Virus record (IMG/VR): IMGVR_UViG_3300030012_003336
Coordinates: 1-60,601 of that record
Direction: 5' to 3' (one strand)
Length of the DNA stretch: 60,601 nucleotides
From: a virus
Lineage: Duplodnaviria; Caudoviricetes
Part shown: piece after piece, positions 3,001 through 45,764 of the stretch
Position numbering within the stretch: position 1 is the first letter of the stretch
Layout: every line of letters begins with the position of its first letter
Translations under genes and position numbers: made by a program
Notes under the pieces: generated by a model
What the model was told of the DNA's origin: nothing
The model's database searches: none
What the model saw: the letters and a program-made list of their open reading frames with translations, nothing else

Positions 3001-6000
3001 TTCAACGTGTCGAGCGCAGCAGGTGCTGAGTCAACAAGATTGCTTACCTGGGTATTAACAAAAGACTGCGTAGCGTAACTAGGATCAGAATCAGGAACCC
3101 AAGACGGCGTAACGTCCGCTCCTGCCTCTATGCCATCCAGCTTCGCATGATCTGCTGTCGTAAAATTTTCGTCAGTCTGTGAAGCGACAACGAAGTCGAG
3201 CGTTCCGTCTCCATCTTGATAAGAGACTGTAATACCACTTTCGGTATTACTGCTGACCATGCCCCCCACGATGTCCTGAACCTGCTCGTTAGACAGTTGG
3301 GTGTTGGTATCTGTGGATGAAATCGTTCCGTCAGATCCAATAGATATGTTTGATCCCGCAGACAATGCAGCGACTACGTTGGCGGTATCCGTAACATCTG
3401 CACTGGCTTCTATAGCGTTGAGCTTAGAATGATCATCGTCAGTAAATACGTTAGAATCTGTAGCGGCGTCAACCAACGTGCGGATCTCACTGGCCGTTTG
3501 ATCAGCCGTAGCGTTAGCTTCTATACCGTCAAGCTTTGCATGATCTGCTGTCGTAAAGTTTTCGTCAGTCTGAGACGCAACAGAGAAGTCGATTGTTCCG
3601 TCTCCATCTTGGTAAGAGACGGTAATACCACTCTCTGTGTTACCAGAAAGCATCCCACCCACAATATCCTGAACCTGCTCGTTAGATAATTGGGTGTTGG
3701 TATTAGTAGCTGCTATGGTTCCGTCAGATCCAATAGATATGTTTGATCCTGCTGACAAAGCAGCAACTACGTTCGCGGTATCAGTCACATCGGCTGATGC
3801 CTCAACGCCAGACAGTTTTGTTTGCAGTGCGTCAGTAAACGCATTCGTGTCGCTGTTGCTCTCGTAGAGCGTTTTTATTTCACTGGCTGTCTGGTCAGCG
3901 GTAGCGCCGGATTCAATCCCGTCTAGCTTTGCATGATCTGCTGTCGTAAAGTTTTCGTCAGTCTGGGACGCAACAGCGAAGTCCAACGTGCCATCGGCAT
4001 CTTGATAAGTTACTGTGATTCCACTTTCAGTGTTACTACTGACCATTCCACCCACGATGTCCTGAACTTGCTCGTTAGACAGTTGAGTGTTGGTATCAGT
4101 AGCTGCAATGGTTCCGTCAGATCCAATAGATATGTTTGACCCAGCAGACAAGGCGGCGACTACGTTGGCCGTGTCGGTTACATCTGCTGAAGCTTCGATT
4201 CCATCCAGCTTTGCGTGATCCGCTGTTGTAAAATTTTCGTCAGTTTGAGATGCGACAGTGAAGTCAATCGTCCCATCAGCATCTTGATAAGCTACGGTGA
4301 TTCCGGTTTCGGTATTCCCCGAGAGCATCCCACCAACGATGTCCTGCACTTGCTCGTTCGAGAGTTGAGTATTCGTGTCGGTAGATGCGATAGTCCCGTC
4401 AGTTCCTATCGAAATATTAGAACCTGCGGATAGCGCCGCCACTACGTTTGCTGTATCGGTGACATCTGCCGAGGCTTCAATGCCGTCGAGCTTTGTGTGG
4501 TCGGCGTCAGTAAATACGTTAGAATCGGTAGCGGAATCGACTAAGGTTCGTATCTCGCTGGCCGTCTGGTCGGCTGTTGCCCCCGACTCGATTCCGTCTA
4601 GTTTTGAGTGATCAGCCGTTGTGAAATTTTCGTCAGTCTGGGACGCAACAGCGAAGTCGATTGTTCCATCTCCGTCTTCATAGCTGACGGTGATTCCACT
4701 CTCAGTGTTTCCAGACAGCATTCCACCAACAATATCCTGAACCTGCTCAGTCGTTAGCTGTGTGTTAGTGTCGGTAGAGCTAATCGTTCCGTCAGATCCA
4801 ATCGATATGTTTGAACCTGCTGATAGCGCAGCGACTACGTTTGCCGTATCGGTTACGTCCGCTGAAGCCTCAATACCGTCTAGCTTTGCTCCGTCTGCAC
4901 TAACGTCCCGCCCGTCTACAGTCTGACTGCCGGACATGACTATGTTGCCTGTCATGGTCCCGCCAGCAAGAGGCAGCTTGGTAGCGATGCTATTAGTTAC
5001 AGTTGTCGAGAAGTTTGCGTCGTCACCAATCGCAGCAGCTAATTCGTTCAGCGTGTCTAATGCACCCGGTGCAGAATCCACTAGGTTACTTACTTGTGTG
5101 GTGACAAACGATTGGGTTGCATAACTAGGGTCAGCGTCAGGAACCCAAGTGGGTGTTACGTCTGCTCCTGCTTCTATGCCGTCTAATTTAGCATGATCGG
5201 CAGTGGTAAAATTCTCGTCAGTCTGTGAAGCGACAGCGAAGTCGATTGTCCCATCGCTGTCTTCATAGGTGACTGTAATTCCAGACTCAGTGTTGCCAGA
5301 CAGCATTCCACCAACGATGTCCTGAACCTGCTCATTCGATAGTTGGGTATTCGTGTCTGTAGCCGCTATGGTTCCGTCAGTTCCTATCGAGATGTTTGAA
5401 CCTGCCGATAATGCTGCGACCACGTTTGCGGTGTCCGTAACATCTGCCAACGCTTCAATGCCGTCGAGCTTCGCATGGTCAGCCGTTGTGAAATTCTCAT
5501 CAGTCTGAGACGAAACAGCGAAATCGATTGTTCCATCGGCATCTTGATAAGTGACTGTTACCCCGCTCTCAGTGTTGCCCGTGAGCATACCACCCACGAT
5601 GTCCTGAACCTGCTCGTTCGAGAGTTGTGTGTTGGTATCTGTCGCAGAGATAGTTCCGTCCGTGCCGATGGAAATGTTCGACCCAGCGGACAATGCGGCT
5701 ACCACGTTGGCCGTGTCAGTTACATCTGCCGCCGCCTCGATGTTGTTTAATTTATTGTGGTCAGCATCCGTGAATACGTTGGAGTCGGAAGCGGCCTCAA
5801 CTAACGTGCGGATCTCCGCAGCAGTTTGATCAGCAGTTGCATTATCCTCAATGTTGTCGAGCTTTGCGTGATCCGCTGTTGTGAAGTTCTCGTCAGTCTG
5901 GGACGCAACAGCGAAGTCGATTGTCCCGTCACTGTCCTCATACGTGACTGTGATTCCTGATTCAGTGTTGCCCGTGAGCATACCACCCACGATGTCCTGA

Positions 6001-38293: not shown

Positions 38294-40081
38294 TCAATCC
38301 AGCAAAACCGCATCGTTGTTTTGTAAGGCCCCCCTGAGAGATTTAATTGTTCGGCGTTGGCGCGGGTTGTTTTTCTCCGCTTCATTCGGTGGATCCACGG
38401 CGACTAACCCAAGACGTTGCCTAGCTAAATCCAAAGCCAGAAACGCGGCGTCTGCTAAATCAGGGCTTTTTCCAAAGCGAGATTTGAATTCTTGTTTAGA
38501 CTCTATTTTGACCCGAAGAGTTCCGCTTTTGACTAAATCGTAGTTTCTGCTGGTAATTTCTTGGGCTAAATCGTGCTTGATGCCAAATACTTGACGAGTT
38601 CGCATCAGCTCTTTTCCTACAAACCAAAGCTCCGAGACTCGATTAACATACAATTCTTCTCCAATTGCTTTGCTATTCGCACTAACCCGCCGGTCACTCG
38701 CTTTGCCCCCAAAGCTAACCCTTAAAAATCGATCCGACCACTCACCAGCCAATACATCACAAAAAGGTGCTCCGGCTCCAGTGGCGTCTACGGCCACGTT
38801 CTCAGGTAGAATATTTCTTCTAGTGCAGTGCTCTTTGATTTGTCTCACTATTTGATATGTGCGGGGAACAGCCTTGTTCGACGCATCATCGTTAAGATGT
38901 ATCGACTCCCCAAACTCGATTACAAATTGCCCCGTCGAGTCGTAGCCAACAGCCGCCGTGAACAAAATGGTTCGGTCACCGCCGTTGGTAAAAGCGGGAT
39001 CAATACCAGCCAAATAGATTGGTTGCCCTTTCCACGATACCTGGCTCATAGCCTTACTTATGGTTAGCTCGTTTTCTCCGTATATGCCTTGTGTCTCATC
39101 GCTGTCGAAGAAAACCGCGCGGACCATCCGCATGTAGCCTCGGGACTCAGGCCCTAGCAACGCCTTGTCCTCATTAATCTTTTCTTCTGTAGGTAACCAC
39201 GGATACAAGACCTCTCCGGCCAGTATGTTGGGGGATCTTTCTCCATCTAATCGGATGTAGTCCCCGCCCCATTTAGTTGTCCAGTCGTCTTGATTGTTTG
39301 TGTCCACTGAGTCCCACCCATTAATAGGTTCGGACCACACTCCAAAAGCATCAAACCTGCTGTTGGGATTGCTCATGCCTATGAGCTGAAACTCAGGGTT
39401 CTTCGACAGGTTGGTCAATCCGGCTTGCAGAATACTTTCTGACAACTCAGATAGCTCGTCTGCAATGAGCAGCGTTCTACGAGCCTTAATACCGATTAGC
39501 TTGCCTACAGCCTCGCGTGTCTTAGACCGCTCCGACGCAATCAACGATAGGCCCGCCCGCTCTATCAAAGTACCCTTTTCAGAAACATAAGCAGCCGATC
39601 CGATTGAATCCCGAATCTTGATCGGGGCACCCTCAACCACTGACAGTAAAGACATGACAGAACCCCAAATCCTTTTACGGGCTTCCCGTAAAGTAGTCGA
39701 GGTCATCAAGACTAGTGTGTCTTTGGGCTGGGACAGCCAATTAACAATACCCCATGCCGCCATAGTGTGACTCTTACCAGATGATGCGCTGCCCCCGATT
39801 GCTAAATACTTGTTATTCAAAGCAGCCCAAATCATTTGCTCCGCCCAAGGATGACGAACCATTAAAGGTTCCGGCAATTCATCATGATTCCATAGCTCGT
39901 CACAAATGCGCCAAAAGTAGTATTCCTTCGCACGTAAATTTTCATGGTGTGCAAATCCATAAAGCAAGCCAGTTAACGGACTCGTAGGTGGTATCATTAA
40001 CCCACCTACGTCCATCTTCTTAGTCTCCGCATCGATGTGCGGTTCTAGTATCTGCTTGATGGATTTCTTTGAAACGGACAT
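38294..40081 (-). CDS. terL: Terminase large subunit
   Basis: Walker A GSASSGKS, Walker B LLIADE, SNP, nuclease GIDPA..GGD, AVDATG, SPDLADA. Confidence 0.93.
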   Translation of the reverse strand: MSVSKKSIKQILEPHIDAETKKMDVGGLMIPPTSPLTGLLYGFAHHENLRAKEYYFWRICDELWNHDELPEPLMVRHPWAEQMIWAALNNKYLAIGGSASSGKSHTMAAWGIVNWLSQPKDTLVLMTSTTLREARKRIWGSVMSLLSVVEGAPIKIRDSIGSAAYVSEKGTLIERAGLSLIASERSKTREAVGKLIGIKARRTLLIADELSELSESILQAGLTNLSKNPEFQLIGMSNPNSRFDAFGVWSEPINGWDSVDTNNQDDWTTKWGGDYIRLDGERSPNILAGEVLYPWLPTEEKINEDKALLGPESRGYMRMVRAVFFDSDETQGIYGENELTISKAMSQVSWKGQPIYLAGIDPAFTNGGDRTILFTAAVGYDSTGQFVIEFGESIHLNDDASNKAVPRTYQIVRQIKEHCTRRNILPENVAVDATGAGAPFCDVLAGEWSDRFLRVSFGGKASDRRVSANSKAIGEELYVNRVSELWFVGKELMRTRQVFGIKHDLAQEITSRNYDLVKSGTLRVKIESKQEFKSRFGKSPDLADAAFLALDLARQRLGLVAVDPPNEAEKNNPRQRRTIKSLRGALQNNDAVLLD

Positions 40082-40110
40082 ACTAAACTCACAGCCTACG
40101 CCTAAGAAAA

Positions 40111-40674
40111 GTGTCTGACAAACCTAAACCCGATAGCTTACAACATAGAGCCCTTGCTATGTACAAGGACAACTGGAAGACCGTTTCGATTGCTAAAGAA
40201 CTGGGAGTCCATCCGGGAACGGTGCGGCGGTGGTTTAAAAAGATGGGGATGCCTGCAAAGAAAAACGGGCTGCAACCAAATCCTATACAGGAAGTATCTG
40301 AGGAAACCGACGCCATCGAAGCACACTTGGAGAACACTACCGACGAGGCGATTAAAAGAGCGCAGCACGACGAGAGGCAAAGAGAAGATGCTTCGATTAT
40401 AGACATCGCCGCAAGCCAAGCATCTCCGGCCGAAAAGTATCAGCACTACATTGCGGCTACGGGCATTAAACTGATGCGGGATGGAGTCAAAAACCTCCGC
40501 CCCCCTAAGACCGTGCGGGAGCTTTCTGAGTTAGATCAGATCGTGCGGCGTAATCTAGGTCTGAATTCCAAGAGTGGTGCGCCTGCAAAGATGCAGATCG
40601 ATATTTCTATTCTTAACAACACAAAAGCGGACAGGGGCGGCGGCGCAGTAAAACCTATTATTGACGTTGAATAA
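40111..40674 (+). CDS. HTH protein, candidate terminase small subunit
   Basis: N-terminal HTH VSIAKELGVHPGTVRRWF, helical middle, adjacent to terL. Confidence 0.6.
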   Translation: MSDKPKPDSLQHRALAMYKDNWKTVSIAKELGVHPGTVRRWFKKMGMPAKKNGLQPNPIQEVSEETDAIEAHLENTTDEAIKRAQHDERQREDASIIDIAASQASPAEKYQHYIAATGIKLMRDGVKNLRPPKTVRELSELDQIVRRNLGLNSKSGAPAKMQIDISILNNTKADRGGGAVKPIIDVE

Positions 40675-42962: not shown

Positions 42963-43613
42963 ATGAGTAGTACTAAGCTAGCTAAAATCAGTGAGACACA
43001 GAAAGCGATTGTTGCCCAGTTGCAGCAAAACATGATGGTCGATGCAGGCGATTTGGAAATACCAAGACTCAACGTCGTGCAGAAAACCTCAAACATCGAT
43101 GCCCCTTTTGGGTCGTTGGTAATCGACAAGCAATTTGTGCTTGCTGATCCCGGTCAGAAAATAAGCTGTATCCCAATCAACACCATGAAAGGGTGGGTCG
43201 AAGACGTTCCTTTTGGTGAGGGCGATGCTCGAAGGGCTTACAATGAGGCCGATAAGGATGCGCTGCAAAACGATTCCAAGTTTAAGATCTTGGAGTTTGC
43301 AGAAGTCGTGTTGGGCTTTCCGCAGCCCGAAGAGTCTGAAACAGCCGATGAAGCCTACCCCCACATCGTTGGAGGTAAGAACTACGCAATCGGTAAAATC
43401 TACGTGCAAAAAGGAGCGTATAGATTTGTGTTCAAAAAACTCGCGACGTTCTTGCAATGTAACCCAACTTTACCCTTATTCTGGGTGAATTGGTCTATCA
43501 CTACGATGGAGAAAACCGCAGGTATGAACACATGGTTTGAACCGATGCTTTCAAATAGCACCAGTGAAACCACTGAAGCCGAGCGGGATTGGGCTACAAA
43601 GTTTGTGATTTAA
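42963..43613 (+). CDS. Putative single-stranded DNA-binding protein
   Basis: DLEIPRLNVVQ..S start; sits between the exonuclease and PolA. Confidence 0.55.
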   Translation: MSSTKLAKISETQKAIVAQLQQNMMVDAGDLEIPRLNVVQKTSNIDAPFGSLVIDKQFVLADPGQKISCIPINTMKGWVEDVPFGEGDARRAYNEADKDALQNDSKFKILEFAEVVLGFPQPEESETADEAYPHIVGGKNYAIGKIYVQKGAYRFVFKKLATFLQCNPTLPLFWVNWSITTMEKTAGMNTWFEPMLSNSTSETTEAERDWATKFVI

Positions 43614-43855
43614 TGAGTGATCCAAACTTTGACGCTGGGGTCGTCCGCAAAGAGATCGATAATCTTAACGAGATGATCGGCCAGGCTAACGAGCAAATAA
43701 AAGTGAGCAAGTCTGCTCTGTCTACTTTTTACCACGTTCGGAGCGCACTGGCTCATTCCATTGGAGAGCGCATTGACATCCCTGATGACAATCAGCTTAA
43801 CCTTTCTCTCGTCATTGACGAGGTGATTACCGAGACATCGCTGGGTGATAAATAG
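43613..43855 (+). CDS. Hypothetical coiled-coil protein
   Basis: ATG overlaps the upstream TAA. Confidence 0.65.
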   Translation: MSDPNFDAGVVRKEIDNLNEMIGQANEQIKVSKSALSTFYHVRSALAHSIGERIDIPDDNQLNLSLVIDEVITETSLGDK

Positions 43856-43858
43856 GTA

Positions 43859-43941
43859 ATGTGGCGGATCAATAAGACGGGGCACGGCTTATTGGTCTGG
43901 TCAATTGCATGGCCTTTAGGGTAACCACATAAAACCCTAAA
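43859..43941 (+). ncRNA. Candidate pseudoknotted structured RNA
   Basis: ATGTGG/CCACAT, GATCAATAAG/CTTATTGGTC, GGTCA/TGGCC, TTTAGGGT/ACCCTAAA. Confidence 0.5.
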
Positions 43942-43944
43942 ATC

Positions 43945-43984
43945 ATACCCCCACAGGTAGTCTCGGGCCTGTGGGGGTATTTTT
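43945..43984 (+). terminator. Terminator-like hairpin directly before polA start
   Basis: 13-bp ATACCCCCACAGG/CCTGTGGGGGTAT stem followed by TTTT. Confidence 0.75.
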
Positions 43985-43988
43985 AGAT

Positions 43989-45764
43989 ATGACTGTTTAC
44001 GCAATAGATTTTGAGACCTACTACGACAAAGATTGTTCTATCCGGACTCTCGGACCTCTAGGGTATTTTGCTCACCCAGATTTTGACGCCTACATGGTTA
44101 CGGTTGTCGGGGACGATGGGACTGAGTTTGTTGGTCACCCTAAAGATTTTGATTGGTCTCTGATAACGGGAAACATAGCCCTTTCCCACAACGCTACTTT
44201 TGATGAAACCTTATATTTATATGGAATTAGGCAAGGATGGTGGGAAGAAGCCACGCCAGAACACTGGCACTGTACGGCGGATATGGCCGCGTATGTGCGG
44301 CTTCCTCGCTCGCTTAAAGCATCTACTAAAGCGGCCTTTGGACTAGAAGTTGATAAGTCCACACGGGACAACATGAGTGGAAAGAAATGGGAGTCGATGG
44401 ATGAAGACTTCAAGACGGAAGTTAGTGAATACGCCCTCAAAGACTCTGAGCTATGCTTACAGCTTTGGGACACTTTCAGCGAACAATGGCCCGAAAGAGA
44501 GCGTGTCATAAGCACACTGAACCGAAGAATTTGTCAGGGCGGGATTCCTATCGACACTGATTTACTGAAGACACAACTTGAAACCATAGCTGGTTATTTG
44601 TTTGAAGCAGAAAATGCAATCCCGTGGATGGGGTCTAAACCTCTCTTGAGCCGGGCAGCATTTGACGAACACTGTCAAAATTTAGGCTTAGAGCCGCCTG
44701 CCAGTCTGGCAGCAACAGATCCCGAGGCTAAAAAATGGTTGGAATATCACGGAAAGAAACATTCTTGGATCAACGCCGTGCAAAACTGGAGACGTATAAA
44801 TGCATTAAAGAAAAAGGTCGAAAGCTTTGATGTAGCGACAATGCCTGATGGCCGTTACTACGGCGGCTTTATGTATTTTGGAGCGCACACTGGACGATTT
44901 AGTGGGAGCGGAGGAAATCTTAATCTACAGAATTTACCACGGGACGAGATGTTCGGGGTCAATCTTCGGCACCTTATACGGGCTAAACAAGGAACGAAGC
45001 TAGTCGTTGTAGATCTTAGCCAGATCGAAGTAAGAACTTTATGCTGGCTTGCTAAGGATAGTCAGATGATGGAGGAAATCGCTTCTTGCGAAGACATTTA
45101 TGAGGCGTTTGCAATCCGCTTCAACCTTTGGCAAAAGGAATCCGGATCCCTGAAACAGGACCCCAAGCTCCGGCACAAAGTAAAAGCCATGGTGCTAGGA
45201 TGCGGATACGGGGCAGGCAAGAAACGCTTCGCAGAAATGTCCGGCATGAAGCGTTCAGAAGCTGACGCAGCCGTGGATATGTATCGAGACTCGATGAGGA
45301 GCGTGACTCAATTATGGCAAAAATATAATATGACAATCTCGTCGTCGCACGAACTGACACAACAGGGATACCCCACAAAGTTTGTCGTGCCCTTACCAAG
45401 TGGCCGGGTTCTGGATTACGGTTACATCAGAGAAGACTATGTCGAGAACAAAGGGAGTCAGTACACAGCTTACTTTCCTAAAGGTACAAAAATGGTTCCT
45501 ACAAGATTGTGGGGAGGGTTTGTGGCTGAGAACGCCTCTCAAGCATTAGCGCGGGATATTTTTTCAGACATGCTTGTCCGGGTATCGGAAGCCGGTCACA
45601 AAATAATTATGCACGTTCACGATGAAATCGTCGTGGAGACCGAGAAAAACTGTGCCGAGCAAACTCTTTCTGAGATGATTGAAATTATGACGACACCCCC
45701 GGAATGGATTCCGGATATACCCTTAGATGCAGATGGTTCTGTAGTAGAGAAATACACTAAATGA
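43989..45764 (+). CDS. polA: Family A DNA polymerase with 3'-5' exonuclease
   Basis: IDFET, AHTGRFSG, LQNLPR, motif A DLSQIEVR, motif B RHKVKAMVLGCGYG, motif C HVHDE. Confidence 0.95.
   Translation: MTVYAIDFETYYDKDCSIRTLGPLGYFAHPDFDAYMVTVVGDDGTEFVGHPKDFDWSLITGNIALSHNATFDETLYLYGIRQGWWEEATPEHWHCTADMAAYVRLPRSLKASTKAAFGLEVDKSTRDNMSGKKWESMDEDFKTEVSEYALKDSELCLQLWDTFSEQWPERERVISTLNRRICQGGIPIDTDLLKTQLETIAGYLFEAENAIPWMGSKPLLSRAAFDEHCQNLGLEPPASLAATDPEAKKWLEYHGKKHSWINAVQNWRRINALKKKVESFDVATMPDGRYYGGFMYFGAHTGRFSGSGGNLNLQNLPRDEMFGVNLRHLIRAKQGTKLVVVDLSQIEVRTLCWLAKDSQMMEEIASCEDIYEAFAIRFNLWQKESGSLKQDPKLRHKVKAMVLGCGYGAGKKRFAEMSGMKRSEADAAVDMYRDSMRSVTQLWQKYNMTISSSHELTQQGYPTKFVVPLPSGRVLDYGYIREDYVENKGSQYTAYFPKGTKMVPTRLWGGFVAENASQALARDIFSDMLVRVSEAGHKIIMHVHDEIVVETEKNCAEQTLSEMIEIMTTPPEWIPDIPLDADGSVVEKYTK

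Follow-up and report, generated by a model that had tools for sequence, protein, structure and literature searches.

The window, i.e. the whole stretch of 60,601 nt of marine phage DNA analysed here, contains the gene of a family A DNA polymerase (polA) that is separated from an upstream 88-aa ORF by a gap of 133 nt (43856-43988). This gap holds most of a structured RNA motif and, behind it, a hairpin with a T-run that resembles an intrinsic terminator; the coordinates of all features are collected in the table below. The operon begins 3.7 kb before the motif, and no promoter-like site was found between 42886 and polA or within 900 nt upstream of the motif. Searches of the window for tRNA and tmRNA genes found none. 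As to transcripts, none of the listed datasets with this stretch is registered as RNA; a single 497-nt contig from one possible RNA run ends at 43600, upstream of the motif, and the contigs of two metatranscriptomes from one carrier sample included none matching the stretch.

Features of the polA upstream region (window coordinates)
Feature	Position	Strand	Remarks
Upstream 88-aa ORF	43589..43855	+	No family match
Double-pseudoknot RNA motif	43855..43941	+	Covariance-model matches extend to 43946 or 43947
Stem A, 5' strand GGT	43855..43857	+	Partner GCC 43912-43914
Stem B, 5' strand TGTGG	43860..43864	+	Partner CCACA 43925-43929; P1 of the initial annotation
Stem C, variable-length hairpin	43865..43899	+	Base C-G, G-U, G-C; fold and covariation; 10-bp hairpin of the initial annotation
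Junction, conserved GTYA (here GTCA) and CAT	43900..43911	+	(Nearly) invariant in 21 sequences found via polA alone
Stem A, 3' strand GCC	43912..43914	+	Covariation; not paired with GGTCA
Stem D, 5' strand TTTAGGG (pseudoknot)	43915..43921	+	Partner 43935-43941
Conserved TAA linker, stems D to B	43922..43924	+	Does not vary among the 21 unbiased sequences
Stem B, 3' strand CCACA	43925..43929	+	Covariation
Conserved A-rich strand TAAAA	43930..43934	+	ATAAAA in every one of the 21
Stem D, 3' strand CCCTAAA	43935..43941	+	Covariation
Intrinsic-terminator-like hairpin and T-run	43945..43984	+	Separate module, outside the RNA family
polA, family A DNA polymerase, 591 aa	43989..45764	+	PF00476, E 9.3e-36

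On the plus strand the gap folds at -59.4 kcal/mol, compared with -39.0 +/- 3.5 kcal/mol for 200 shuffled versions (z -5.77, none of the 200 being as good), and the fold of the minus strand is weaker (z -4.05). The initial annotation had drawn an outer helix ATGTGG (43859-43864)/CCACAT (43925-43930), a long hairpin (43865-43899), a 5-bp hairpin GGTCA (43899-43903)/TGGCC (43910-43914), a possible pseudoknot of TTTAGGGT (43915-43922) with ACCCTAAA (43934-43941) and a terminator hairpin, and all of these strands are indeed present in the sequence. It had also proposed to look for covariation among relatives. In an alignment of 105 related, diverse sequences, comprising 19 pairs in four helices, all four helices covary: 95.0% of the paired cells can pair, compared with 73.4% for shuffled versions and 36-45% with the partners slid out of register, and changes on both sides occur at 14 of the 19 pairs.

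The four helices differ partly from those drawn before. Stem D is paired in 97.1% of cases and changes on both sides at five of its six pairs, which supports the pseudoknot. The long hairpin (stem C) is likewise backed by covariation (both-sided changes at its fourth pair in 63 sequences). From the outer helix, drawn with 6 bp, five pairs covary and are retained as stem B, whereas the A-T pair 43859/43930 is unpaired in 58 of 104 sequences; stem B, which had been left out of the model that built the alignment, changes on both sides at five of six pairs. The 5-bp hairpin had to be given up: it is paired in 70.9%, no more than in shuffles (349 of 500 reached that value), and 99 of the 105 sequences leave its fourth pair unpaired. 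Its GCC instead forms a covarying 3-bp helix with 43855-43857 that was missing from the earlier drawing (stem A, 97.1% paired; pair 1 occurs as GC, CG, AU and GU, pair 3 as UG, CG, UA, GC, AU and GU). As GCC 43912-43914 thus pairs with the first three bases of the motif, the helices follow each other in the order A5'-B5'-[hairpin C]-A3'-D5'-B3'-D3', and the fold is a double pseudoknot. One G-U pair at the base of stem C is kept in 105 of 105 sequences and would be a C-A mismatch on the opposite strand, and at another pair UG is the commonest type. Taken together, 43855-43941 is a genuine structured RNA on the coding strand.

About two dozen near-invariant bases remain unpaired between the helices (GUYA, CAU, UAA and AUAAAAG), and the RNA measures about 75-100 nt across the family (87 nt in the window). 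Most relatives carry an extra G at the A-rich strand. The 14 nt 3' of the last helix contain few Gs (at each position between 3 and 12 of 105 sequences have one) and are therefore probably unstructured. The first G of stem A is also the final base of the TAG stop codon of the upstream ORF. We also looked by eye at an extended stem A (GGUAWUG with CAUCGCC), the CAU of which is only partly conserved; in one locus (L016) a single change at G7 of this extended stem is compensated in stem B, not in the extended stem.

The motif belongs to a large uncatalogued RNA family of uncultured phages and a few prophages. A first covariance model (R1) matches the window only at this site (68.5 bits, E 2.5e-15), and a second one (R2) scores 57.3 bits there. 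We found the motif in 101 of 120 and 101 of 106 viral loci in two scans and in 24 of 80 polA loci in a third, and in 17 of 109 pattern-matched loci of bacterial and archaeal genomes (one genome each of 185,579 species), eight of these 17 being Verrucomicrobiota. Altogether there are 176 distinct motif sequences, 115 of them below 88% identity, with G+C contents from 0.36 to 0.65. The carriers are phages binned with several phyla; among the prophages is one of the cultured, harmless bacterium Cerasicoccus frondis NBRC 105381 (locus L267, motif at 5741-5817). Tandem copies occur in three loci (L178, L337 and L381) and two separated copies in two others (L168 and L278). In cultured phages, blastn with 3 kb around the motif gave no match, and a consensus-like motif gave only chance matches of 21-27 nt, its 16-nt conserved core being near the limit of that search. 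The polA of the window shares no more than about 28% identity with its counterpart in any phage in culture.

No named family can be assigned, as the initial annotation had stated. The whole window has no match at the gathering thresholds of Rfam 15 (4227 models), and within 149 kb from 11 motif loci a tRNA is the only one. With E values up to 10, there are four chance-level matches at the motif of the window and none around another member (L155). Among the matches at the window motif, NsiR1 (RF02399; 43919-43985, E 0.053) covers mainly the terminator hairpin and T-run and was rejected, its 21.7 bits lying under the gathering score of 39. The literature found by full-text search contains no description of the motif, though supplementary files could list it.

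Throughout the family the motif occupies intergenic gaps within blocks of genes for replication, recombination and nucleotide modification, and its flanking genes are co-directional with it in 158 of 176 loci. Neighbours from DNA metabolism include polA, an Enc34-type SSB, AAA_24, DUF3127, DUF1599 and a methyltransferase. The downstream ORFs (149) form 71 clusters and the upstream ones (172) form 77. In 42 of the 149 cases polA follows the motif, the others being spread over 70 further ORF clusters, and in the polA-linked relatives small ORFs homologous to the 88-aa ORF precede the motif (a cluster of 42). By blastp clustering, which could miss remote homologues or genes on cut contigs, no protein family recurs within 7 kb in more than 30 of 115 loci. 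Upstream, the stop codon is at most 20 nt away from the start of the motif in 129 of 172 cases, and the distance to the next ORF varies widely. HNH genes of the homing type, a type known to target highly conserved genes, stand directly upstream in 33 of 172 distinct cases; in the HNH-linked group examined, some 0.5 kb of non-coding DNA rich in repeats comes after the motif.

The predicted terminator is likewise present where the initial annotation had placed it, 4 nt before the polA ATG. It consists of a G+C-rich hairpin at 43945-43980 with 14 pairs (8 G-C) and a loop of 8, then TTTTT ending at 43984, followed by AGAT and the start codon, and is the best such site in 8 kb. However, the suggestion that RNA and terminator form one gate for polA is not backed by our data, for three reasons. 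Terminator-like hairpins precede polA in 14 of 21 loci with the motif but also in 21 of 51 loci without it (compared with 16 of 360 shuffles); only 52 of 173 family members (about 30%) have such a hairpin within 110 nt; and in the 29 loci where a strong terminator starts at most 12 nt from the motif, the motif is as complementary to shuffled arms as to either arm of the terminator (mean z -0.11 and 0.09). The same 29 loci led us to reject a riboswitch-style coupling between the two. The terminator belongs to the region upstream of polA in its own right, as a module separate from the motif.

As to function, we consider it a serious possibility, if one falling slightly short of probable, that the family is a new class of catalytic or machine-binding RNA working without a phage protein, i.e. 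either a new self-cleaving ribozyme fold or a factor-independent RNA that reprograms host RNA polymerase, portable between the replication gene blocks of phages of several bacterial phyla and repeatedly having homing HNH genes parked beside it, as happens at other highly conserved genes. We infer that the RNA is a self-contained module which acts in cis on the transcript that contains it and needs no phage protein of its own. Our single best guess, which we hold tentatively and consider less likely than not, is a new class of small self-cleaving ribozyme, which would cleave the polycistronic mRNA of replication genes between cistrons; in the window, the cut would separate the recombination genes from the part comprising terminator, polA and primase gene. 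A real, strand-specific, covarying RNA suggests this reading, as do its independence of gene context and the missing coupling to terminators. Small self-cleaving ribozymes are described as enriched near phage genes and near each other, mostly without a known role (PMC10085705; PMC6765202), with which the ribozyme reading is consistent, and the tandem and separated copies also count in its favour. On the other side, the models of hammerhead, twister, twister-sister, pistol, hatchet and HDV-like ribozymes gave no match at E up to 10, i.e. no known ribozyme fits even weakly, and the 149 kb of motif loci contain no known ribozyme nearby. Moreover, a ribozyme does not need to be confined to DNA-metabolism blocks, which a regulator would fit at least as well, and it leaves the 29 loci with an adjacent strong terminator unexplained. 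A conserved fold with invariant junctions is just as characteristic of riboswitch aptamers and of RNAs binding to RNA polymerase or to the ribosome.

The terminator itself brings in a second reading, which we regard as unlikely: an RNA overriding terminators in the manner of the HK022 put elements. The nascent RNA would bind the host RNA polymerase and cause read-through at 43945-43984 and at later terminators, so that polA and the primase gene would be transcribed without any phage protein or alternative pairing. As there is no promoter-like site between 42886 and polA and a terminator precedes the gene, polA would need read-through. It is established that RNAs of some 70 nt, acting in cis, override terminators ahead of early phage genes (PMC9378689; PMC11658703). 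In particular, putL and putR of HK022 are nascent RNAs of this size from an early operon that need no dedicated protein and precede terminators ahead of replication genes (PMC9378689). The arrangement of terminator and gene start just behind the motif, in the window as in the 29 loci, would suit such a role, and so would the co-directionality with the operon and the lack of a shared protein partner; occurrence in phages of several phyla is expected for a conserved target in the host machinery, and the missing complementarity to the terminators fits an RNA that targets the polymerase and not the hairpin. However, put consists of two stem-loops near a promoter, and its description (PMC9378689) nowhere uses the word pseudoknot, whereas our motif is a double pseudoknot of four helices 3.7 kb into the operon, and most members have no terminator nearby. 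In addition, relatives lacking the motif keep the pre-polA terminator, so read-through does not depend on the motif.

Two further readings appear improbable to a similar degree. As a riboswitch, the double pseudoknot would serve as an aptamer, recognise some small molecule connected with DNA synthesis or with the state of the host, and control the downstream gene. The fold is aptamer-like indeed, with variable, covarying stems around invariant junctions and tandem copies, all its gene neighbours belong to DNA metabolism, and the next ORF begins no more than 20 nt from the model end in 39 of 149 cases, near enough for the fold to occlude ribosome binding. However, an expression platform that would exclude part of the aptamer could not be found in the 29 terminator loci, there is no Shine-Dalgarno sequence to sequester, the next ORF (at least 50 aa) is more than 150 nt away in 18 of 149 cases, and non-coding repeats follow the motif in the HNH-linked group. 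The near absence from cellular genomes is also unlike metabolite riboswitches, of which no model matches. The other reading, a free-standing stable small RNA, would be released from the mRNA, ended here by the terminator, and act in trans or, as the 3' end of the upstream message, protect it. It would agree with the closely preceding stop codons and the variable distance to the next ORF, with the terminator directly after the motif in the polA group, with a tRNA-Glu gene beginning 4 nt past the motif in one locus (L387) and with the homing-type HNH genes upstream. Against it stand the lack of a promoter-like site within 900 nt upstream in the window, the majority of members without terminator and the absence of an evident target or partner.

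We think it quite improbable that the RNA is a translation element for hosts without Shine-Dalgarno use, the fold coupling or insulating neighbouring cistrons: no Shine-Dalgarno sequence precedes polA or 42 other closely following ORFs and the 3' 14 nt are G-poor, but the start codon lies anywhere from 0 to more than 300 nt from the motif, and in the polA group a terminator may stand between the two. Translational operators in the leaders of polymerase and SSB genes are exemplified in phages by gene 43 and gene 32 of T4, and the initial annotation had offered a polymerase autoregulatory operator; the motif does stand directly before polA in the window and elsewhere, and before SSB-like genes in a few loci, but such an operator should lie consistently in the leader of the gene it regulates, and since polA is downstream in only 42 of 149 cases, most members preceding unrelated genes or none, and the motif is entirely missing from polA relatives of 57-63% identity, we find this reading very hard to maintain. 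Equally little speaks for a DNA-level element, e.g. a single-strand origin or the target of a homing endonuclease, which would suit the replication gene blocks and the iteron-like repeats adjoining the HNH-linked motif but not the conserved G-U pairs, the better fold of the plus strand and an orientation that follows the genes.

New RNA folds with comparable covariation support are rare, and most of those studied further have proved to be ribozymes, riboswitches or machine-binding RNAs. If catalytic, the present family would add a ribozyme class; if it acts on RNA polymerase, put-like control would be shown to be widespread. In either case it bears on the expression of replication genes in phages whose hosts seem to do without Shine-Dalgarno sequences, and it is abundant in uncultured marine and other phages. 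As the RNA is small (about 75 nt) and present in the prophage of the cultured C. frondis strain, its function can be tested at once.

Among known RNAs, HDV-like ribozymes form a nested double pseudoknot too, in the order P1-P2-P3 hairpin-P1'-P4 hairpin-P2'. In our family, however, the 3' strand of stem D comes after that of stem B and not before, and stem A comprises 3 bp instead of about 7; on these grounds we rejected membership. SAM-II and preQ1 riboswitches have H-type pseudoknots as aptamers, as formed here by stems B and D, and the A-rich strand AUAAAAG is placed to run along the groove of stem B as in those RNAs, but the family has the additional helix A and hairpin C, matches neither model, lacks an expression platform and is nearly confined to viruses. 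Pistol follows the order helix 1 5', pseudoknot 5', helix 1 3', helix 2 5', pseudoknot 3', helix 2 3', which is the strand order of our family once the hairpins are left out; it is likewise a small RNA with short A-rich linkers from phage-like metagenomic contexts, whereas the extra hairpin lies in a different loop, stem A has only 3 bp and the conserved bases differ. Finally, comparative genomics has already yielded orphan RNA motifs from phages and metagenomes (Weinberg et al. 2010, PMC2864571; 2017, PMC5737381). Although none of these motifs, which are included in the Rfam 15 families, matches, the present family resembles them in being covarying, intergenic and drawn mostly from uncultured sequence.

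The 133-nt gap of the window separates an 88-aa ORF (43589–43855) from the gene for a family A DNA polymerase (polA), and is embedded in a block of replication and recombination genes, each of them encoded on the + strand. The promoter region of this block must lie beside the end of a 595-aa ORF on the − strand (38294–40111), 3.7 kb upstream of the motif; a distance of 30 nt separates the end of that ORF from the block's first + strand gene. The window equals a whole IMG/VR virus record (60,601 bases), rated complete by CheckV, and its sequence was found again in marine metagenomes of 12 studies, in each case as DNA contigs. A Shine-Dalgarno sequence is absent before polA (43980–43991) and before 42 ORFs starting soon after a motif; the hosts probably initiate translation without it.

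Helices of the RNA motif and genes of the surrounding block (window positions)
Feature	Position	Strand	Remark
Stem A	43855–43857 with 43912–43914	+	missed by the initial annotation
Stem B	43860–43864 with 43925–43929	+	P1 of the initial annotation
Hairpin C	43865–43899	+	10-bp hairpin of the initial annotation
Stem D	43915–43921 with 43935–43941	+	pseudoknot of the initial annotation
polA start ATG	43989	+	PF00476, E 9.3e-36; block member
HTH protein		+	block member
Holliday-junction resolvase		+	block member
DUF2800 PD-(D/E)XK exonuclease		+	block member
DUF5906 primase/helicase		+	block member

On the + strand the gap folds with −59.4 kcal/mol compared to −39.0 ± 3.5 in shuffled sequences (z = −5.77; 0 of 200 shuffles as good); the opposite strand folds more weakly (z = −4.05). 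The initial annotation had seen here a pseudoknotted RNA, and all the pairings it listed are found in the window sequence. To analyze covariation, which it had proposed as a check, 105 sequences were aligned, taken from the first 100 of 111 loci chosen for diversity (11 loci left out). The four-helix structure is paired in 95.0% of the cells of this alignment compared to 73.4% in column shuffles and 36–45% with slid partners. Covariation was indeed detected: 14 of 19 pairs change on both sides (414 cells; none of 500 shuffles matches the observed score), with the counts for stems A, C and D leaning towards the structure, as these stems were built into the model that made the alignment. Stem B lies outside this model, yet five of its six pairs change on both sides, with combinations, judged by eye, such as GUGG/CCAC, GUAG/CUAC, GUGA/UCAC, GAGG/CCUC, GAUG/CAUC and GCGC/GCGC. 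A 5-bp hairpin proposed at the outset (43899–43903 with 43910–43914) has no support: it is paired in 70.9% of cells, equal to shuffles, 99 of the 105 sequences cannot form its fourth pair, and the GCC assigned to it is part of stem A. As the strands follow the order A5'-B5'-C-A3'-D5'-B3'-D3', the RNA is a double pseudoknot. Since G-U pairs are invariant, one of them being kept in 105 of 105 sequences, it is the gene strand that folds. All 21 sequences found via polA alone share the junction bases CUGGU.A, GUAA and AUAAAA; this is the sole set free of search-pattern bias, the pattern having fixed these bases in the other sets. Throughout the family, the 14 nt after stem D (+1 to +14; 43942–43955) contain very little G (at each position, 3 to 12 of 105 sequences have it). 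One subgroup reads CACCUCC there, resembling the 3' end of 16S rRNA.

Among 80 IMG/VR loci with polA relatives confirmed by tblastn, 24 contain a conserved sequence on the same strand in the gap before polA, with the consensus GGNAWUGNNNCGG, a variable hairpin, CUGGUYA, a few bases, CAUC-NCC, a 5–7-nt arm, GUAA-NNNN-AUAAAAG and the complementary arm. Three further scans used short consensus pieces as pattern, followed by a covariance model check for the whole motif. In viral sequences, a 15-base core yielded the whole motif in 101 of 120 loci among the matches listed, and a pattern with stem B free and its commonest form excluded did so in 101 of 106 loci; in a set of 185,579 bacterial and archaeal species, each represented by one genome, the stem-B-free pattern without exclusion gave 17 of 109 loci. 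Eight of these 17 are labelled Verrucomicrobiota, one each Planctomycetota, Bdellovibrionota, Bacteroidota, Acidobacteriota and Rickettsiales, and the other four come from a Kaiserbacteria (candidate phylum) bin, two archaeal bins and one unclassified bin. The bin labels are leads to hosts rather than proof, since bins can contain stray phage contigs. In cultured Cerasicoccus frondis NBRC 105381, a Verrucomicrobiota locus (L267), a RecT-family gene lies ~1 kb downstream of the motif. In this prophage-like region a 349-codon open frame (4776–5825) spans the whole motif (5741–5817), either as a chance extension or as a gene end overlapping the RNA. Altogether we found at least 238 matches, corresponding to at least 176 distinct sequences (G/C content 0.36–0.65), at least 115 of them with <88% mutual identity; the window itself contains one copy.

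Just as the initial annotation could name no family, Rfam 15 gives no match at gathering thresholds within the window. A search of 11 other motif loci (149 kb) returned only a tRNA. With E values up to 10 allowed, the surroundings of the window motif gave nothing above chance level, and those of a consensus-like member gave no match at all. The top Rfam match at the window, NsiR1, scores 21.7 bits where 39 are required, mainly over the terminator. A literature search of main article texts found no description of the motif. It represents a large family of phage RNAs, well supported and not yet catalogued; this is its first sighting, which makes the finding more interesting than initially supposed.

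The motif is intergenic and runs in the same direction as its neighbouring genes in 158 of 176 loci. An upstream stop codon overlaps it or lies within 20 nt (129 of 172), and the next ORF (≥50 aa) follows after 0 to >300 nt. The neighbours are diverse (71 downstream and 77 upstream ORF clusters), and within 7 kb even the most widespread protein family occurs in no more than 30 of the 115 diverse loci. Downstream, polA is found in 42 of 149 loci, besides Enc34-type SSB, AAA_24, DUF3127, DUF1599, a methyltransferase and numerous unknowns. In two loci the polA match is ~2.6 kb long vs 1.77 kb (L066, 3001–5631; L070, 3001–5604), pointing to inserted sequence within the polymerase gene, for instance an intein, intron or endonuclease gene. 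Upstream we found a small ORF family (42 of 172), T7-type primase/helicase, exonucleases, resolvases and, in 33 of 172 distinct cases, an HNH endonuclease of ~210 aa with an N-terminal HTH, ending a few bases before the motif (e.g. L092, 7316–7945, − strand; L352, 8965–9546, + strand; plus 31 others). The HNH gene looks like a homing-type gene, lodging repeatedly next to a conserved RNA gene. Motifs adjoining it differ in stem sequences. In five HNH-linked loci examined, motif and next genes are separated by several hundred bases with many short direct repeats, which may be a replication origin or operator cluster. Such noncoding stretches occur at L352 9640–10340, L319 5340–5800, L364 4480–4870 and L394 9800–10350; examples of repeats are three 12-mers with a spacing of 8 nt and three copies of TGGGGGCAT, and the stretches also contain palindromes rich in G+C. 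Three loci carry tandem copies of the motif (L178, L337, L381) and two carry copies further apart (L168, L278). The second L278 copy (5294–5376, − strand; a Verrucomicrobiia bin) has GGAACCGCGUAGAAC in place of the core GUAACCGCAUAAAAG, scores only 42 bits and may be decaying or divergent. At L387 (1542–1698) a tRNA-Glu (UUC) gene begins 4 nt past the motif end; tRNA genes also lie near motifs in L381 and L350.

Among the terminator-like sites in 8 kb of scanned sequence, the strongest is the hairpin at 43945–43980 together with its T-run. By a strict test, a hairpin with T-run precedes polA in 14 of 21 loci with the motif and 21 of 51 without it, compared to 16 of 360 shuffles; a laxer test, which includes some weak calls, places a terminator-like site within 110 nt of the motif in 52 of 173 evaluable members. 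An attenuator or terminator-type riboswitch requires mutually exclusive pairing. In 29 loci with a strong terminator starting ≤12 nt from the motif, complementarity between the motif and either terminator arm does not exceed that seen with shuffled arms (mean z −0.11 and 0.09), so that there is no sign of such pairing. In the window fold, part of the stem D 3' strand can lengthen the base of the terminator helix, an overlap that is not conserved. The terminator is a module separate from the RNA motif. The initial annotation was largely right in what it observed, and its RNA is real; a single gate made of RNA and terminator is unsupported, as terminators also occur in motif-less relatives and, in the 29 loci, their arms show no excess complementarity to the motif.

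The sequence is kept across phages differing widely in base composition and apparent hosts, it is portable among unrelated gene neighbourhoods, occurs in tandem, lacks a shared protein neighbour and folds into a compact double pseudoknot whose junction bases do not vary. These features suggest a self-contained RNA, whose partner would be itself, a small molecule or a conserved host machine. Its function we infer from the observed family, fold and contexts. As the leading, still tentative reading we propose a new class of self-cleaving ribozyme, ranked first because ribozymes of this kind, too, are concentrated between phage genes and show no constant gene partner (PMC10085705, PMC6765202). Somewhat less probable is an RNA resembling the HK022 putL/putR antiterminator RNAs, whose existence is documented (PMC9378689, PMC11658703), and which would make RNA polymerase ignore terminators; it would best fit the window, since polA lies directly behind the terminator with no promoter-like site between, but is weakened by the terminators retained in motif-less relatives. 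A riboswitch, whose terminator-type form would need the pairing not seen here, and a processed stable small RNA are both rather doubtful, and neither seems the likelier of the two. A translation element appears improbable, and a polymerase operator or an element acting at the DNA level would be very surprising. The self-cleaving ribozyme proposed here would have a structural parallel: hairpins left out, the pistol ribozyme has the same strand order as the motif.
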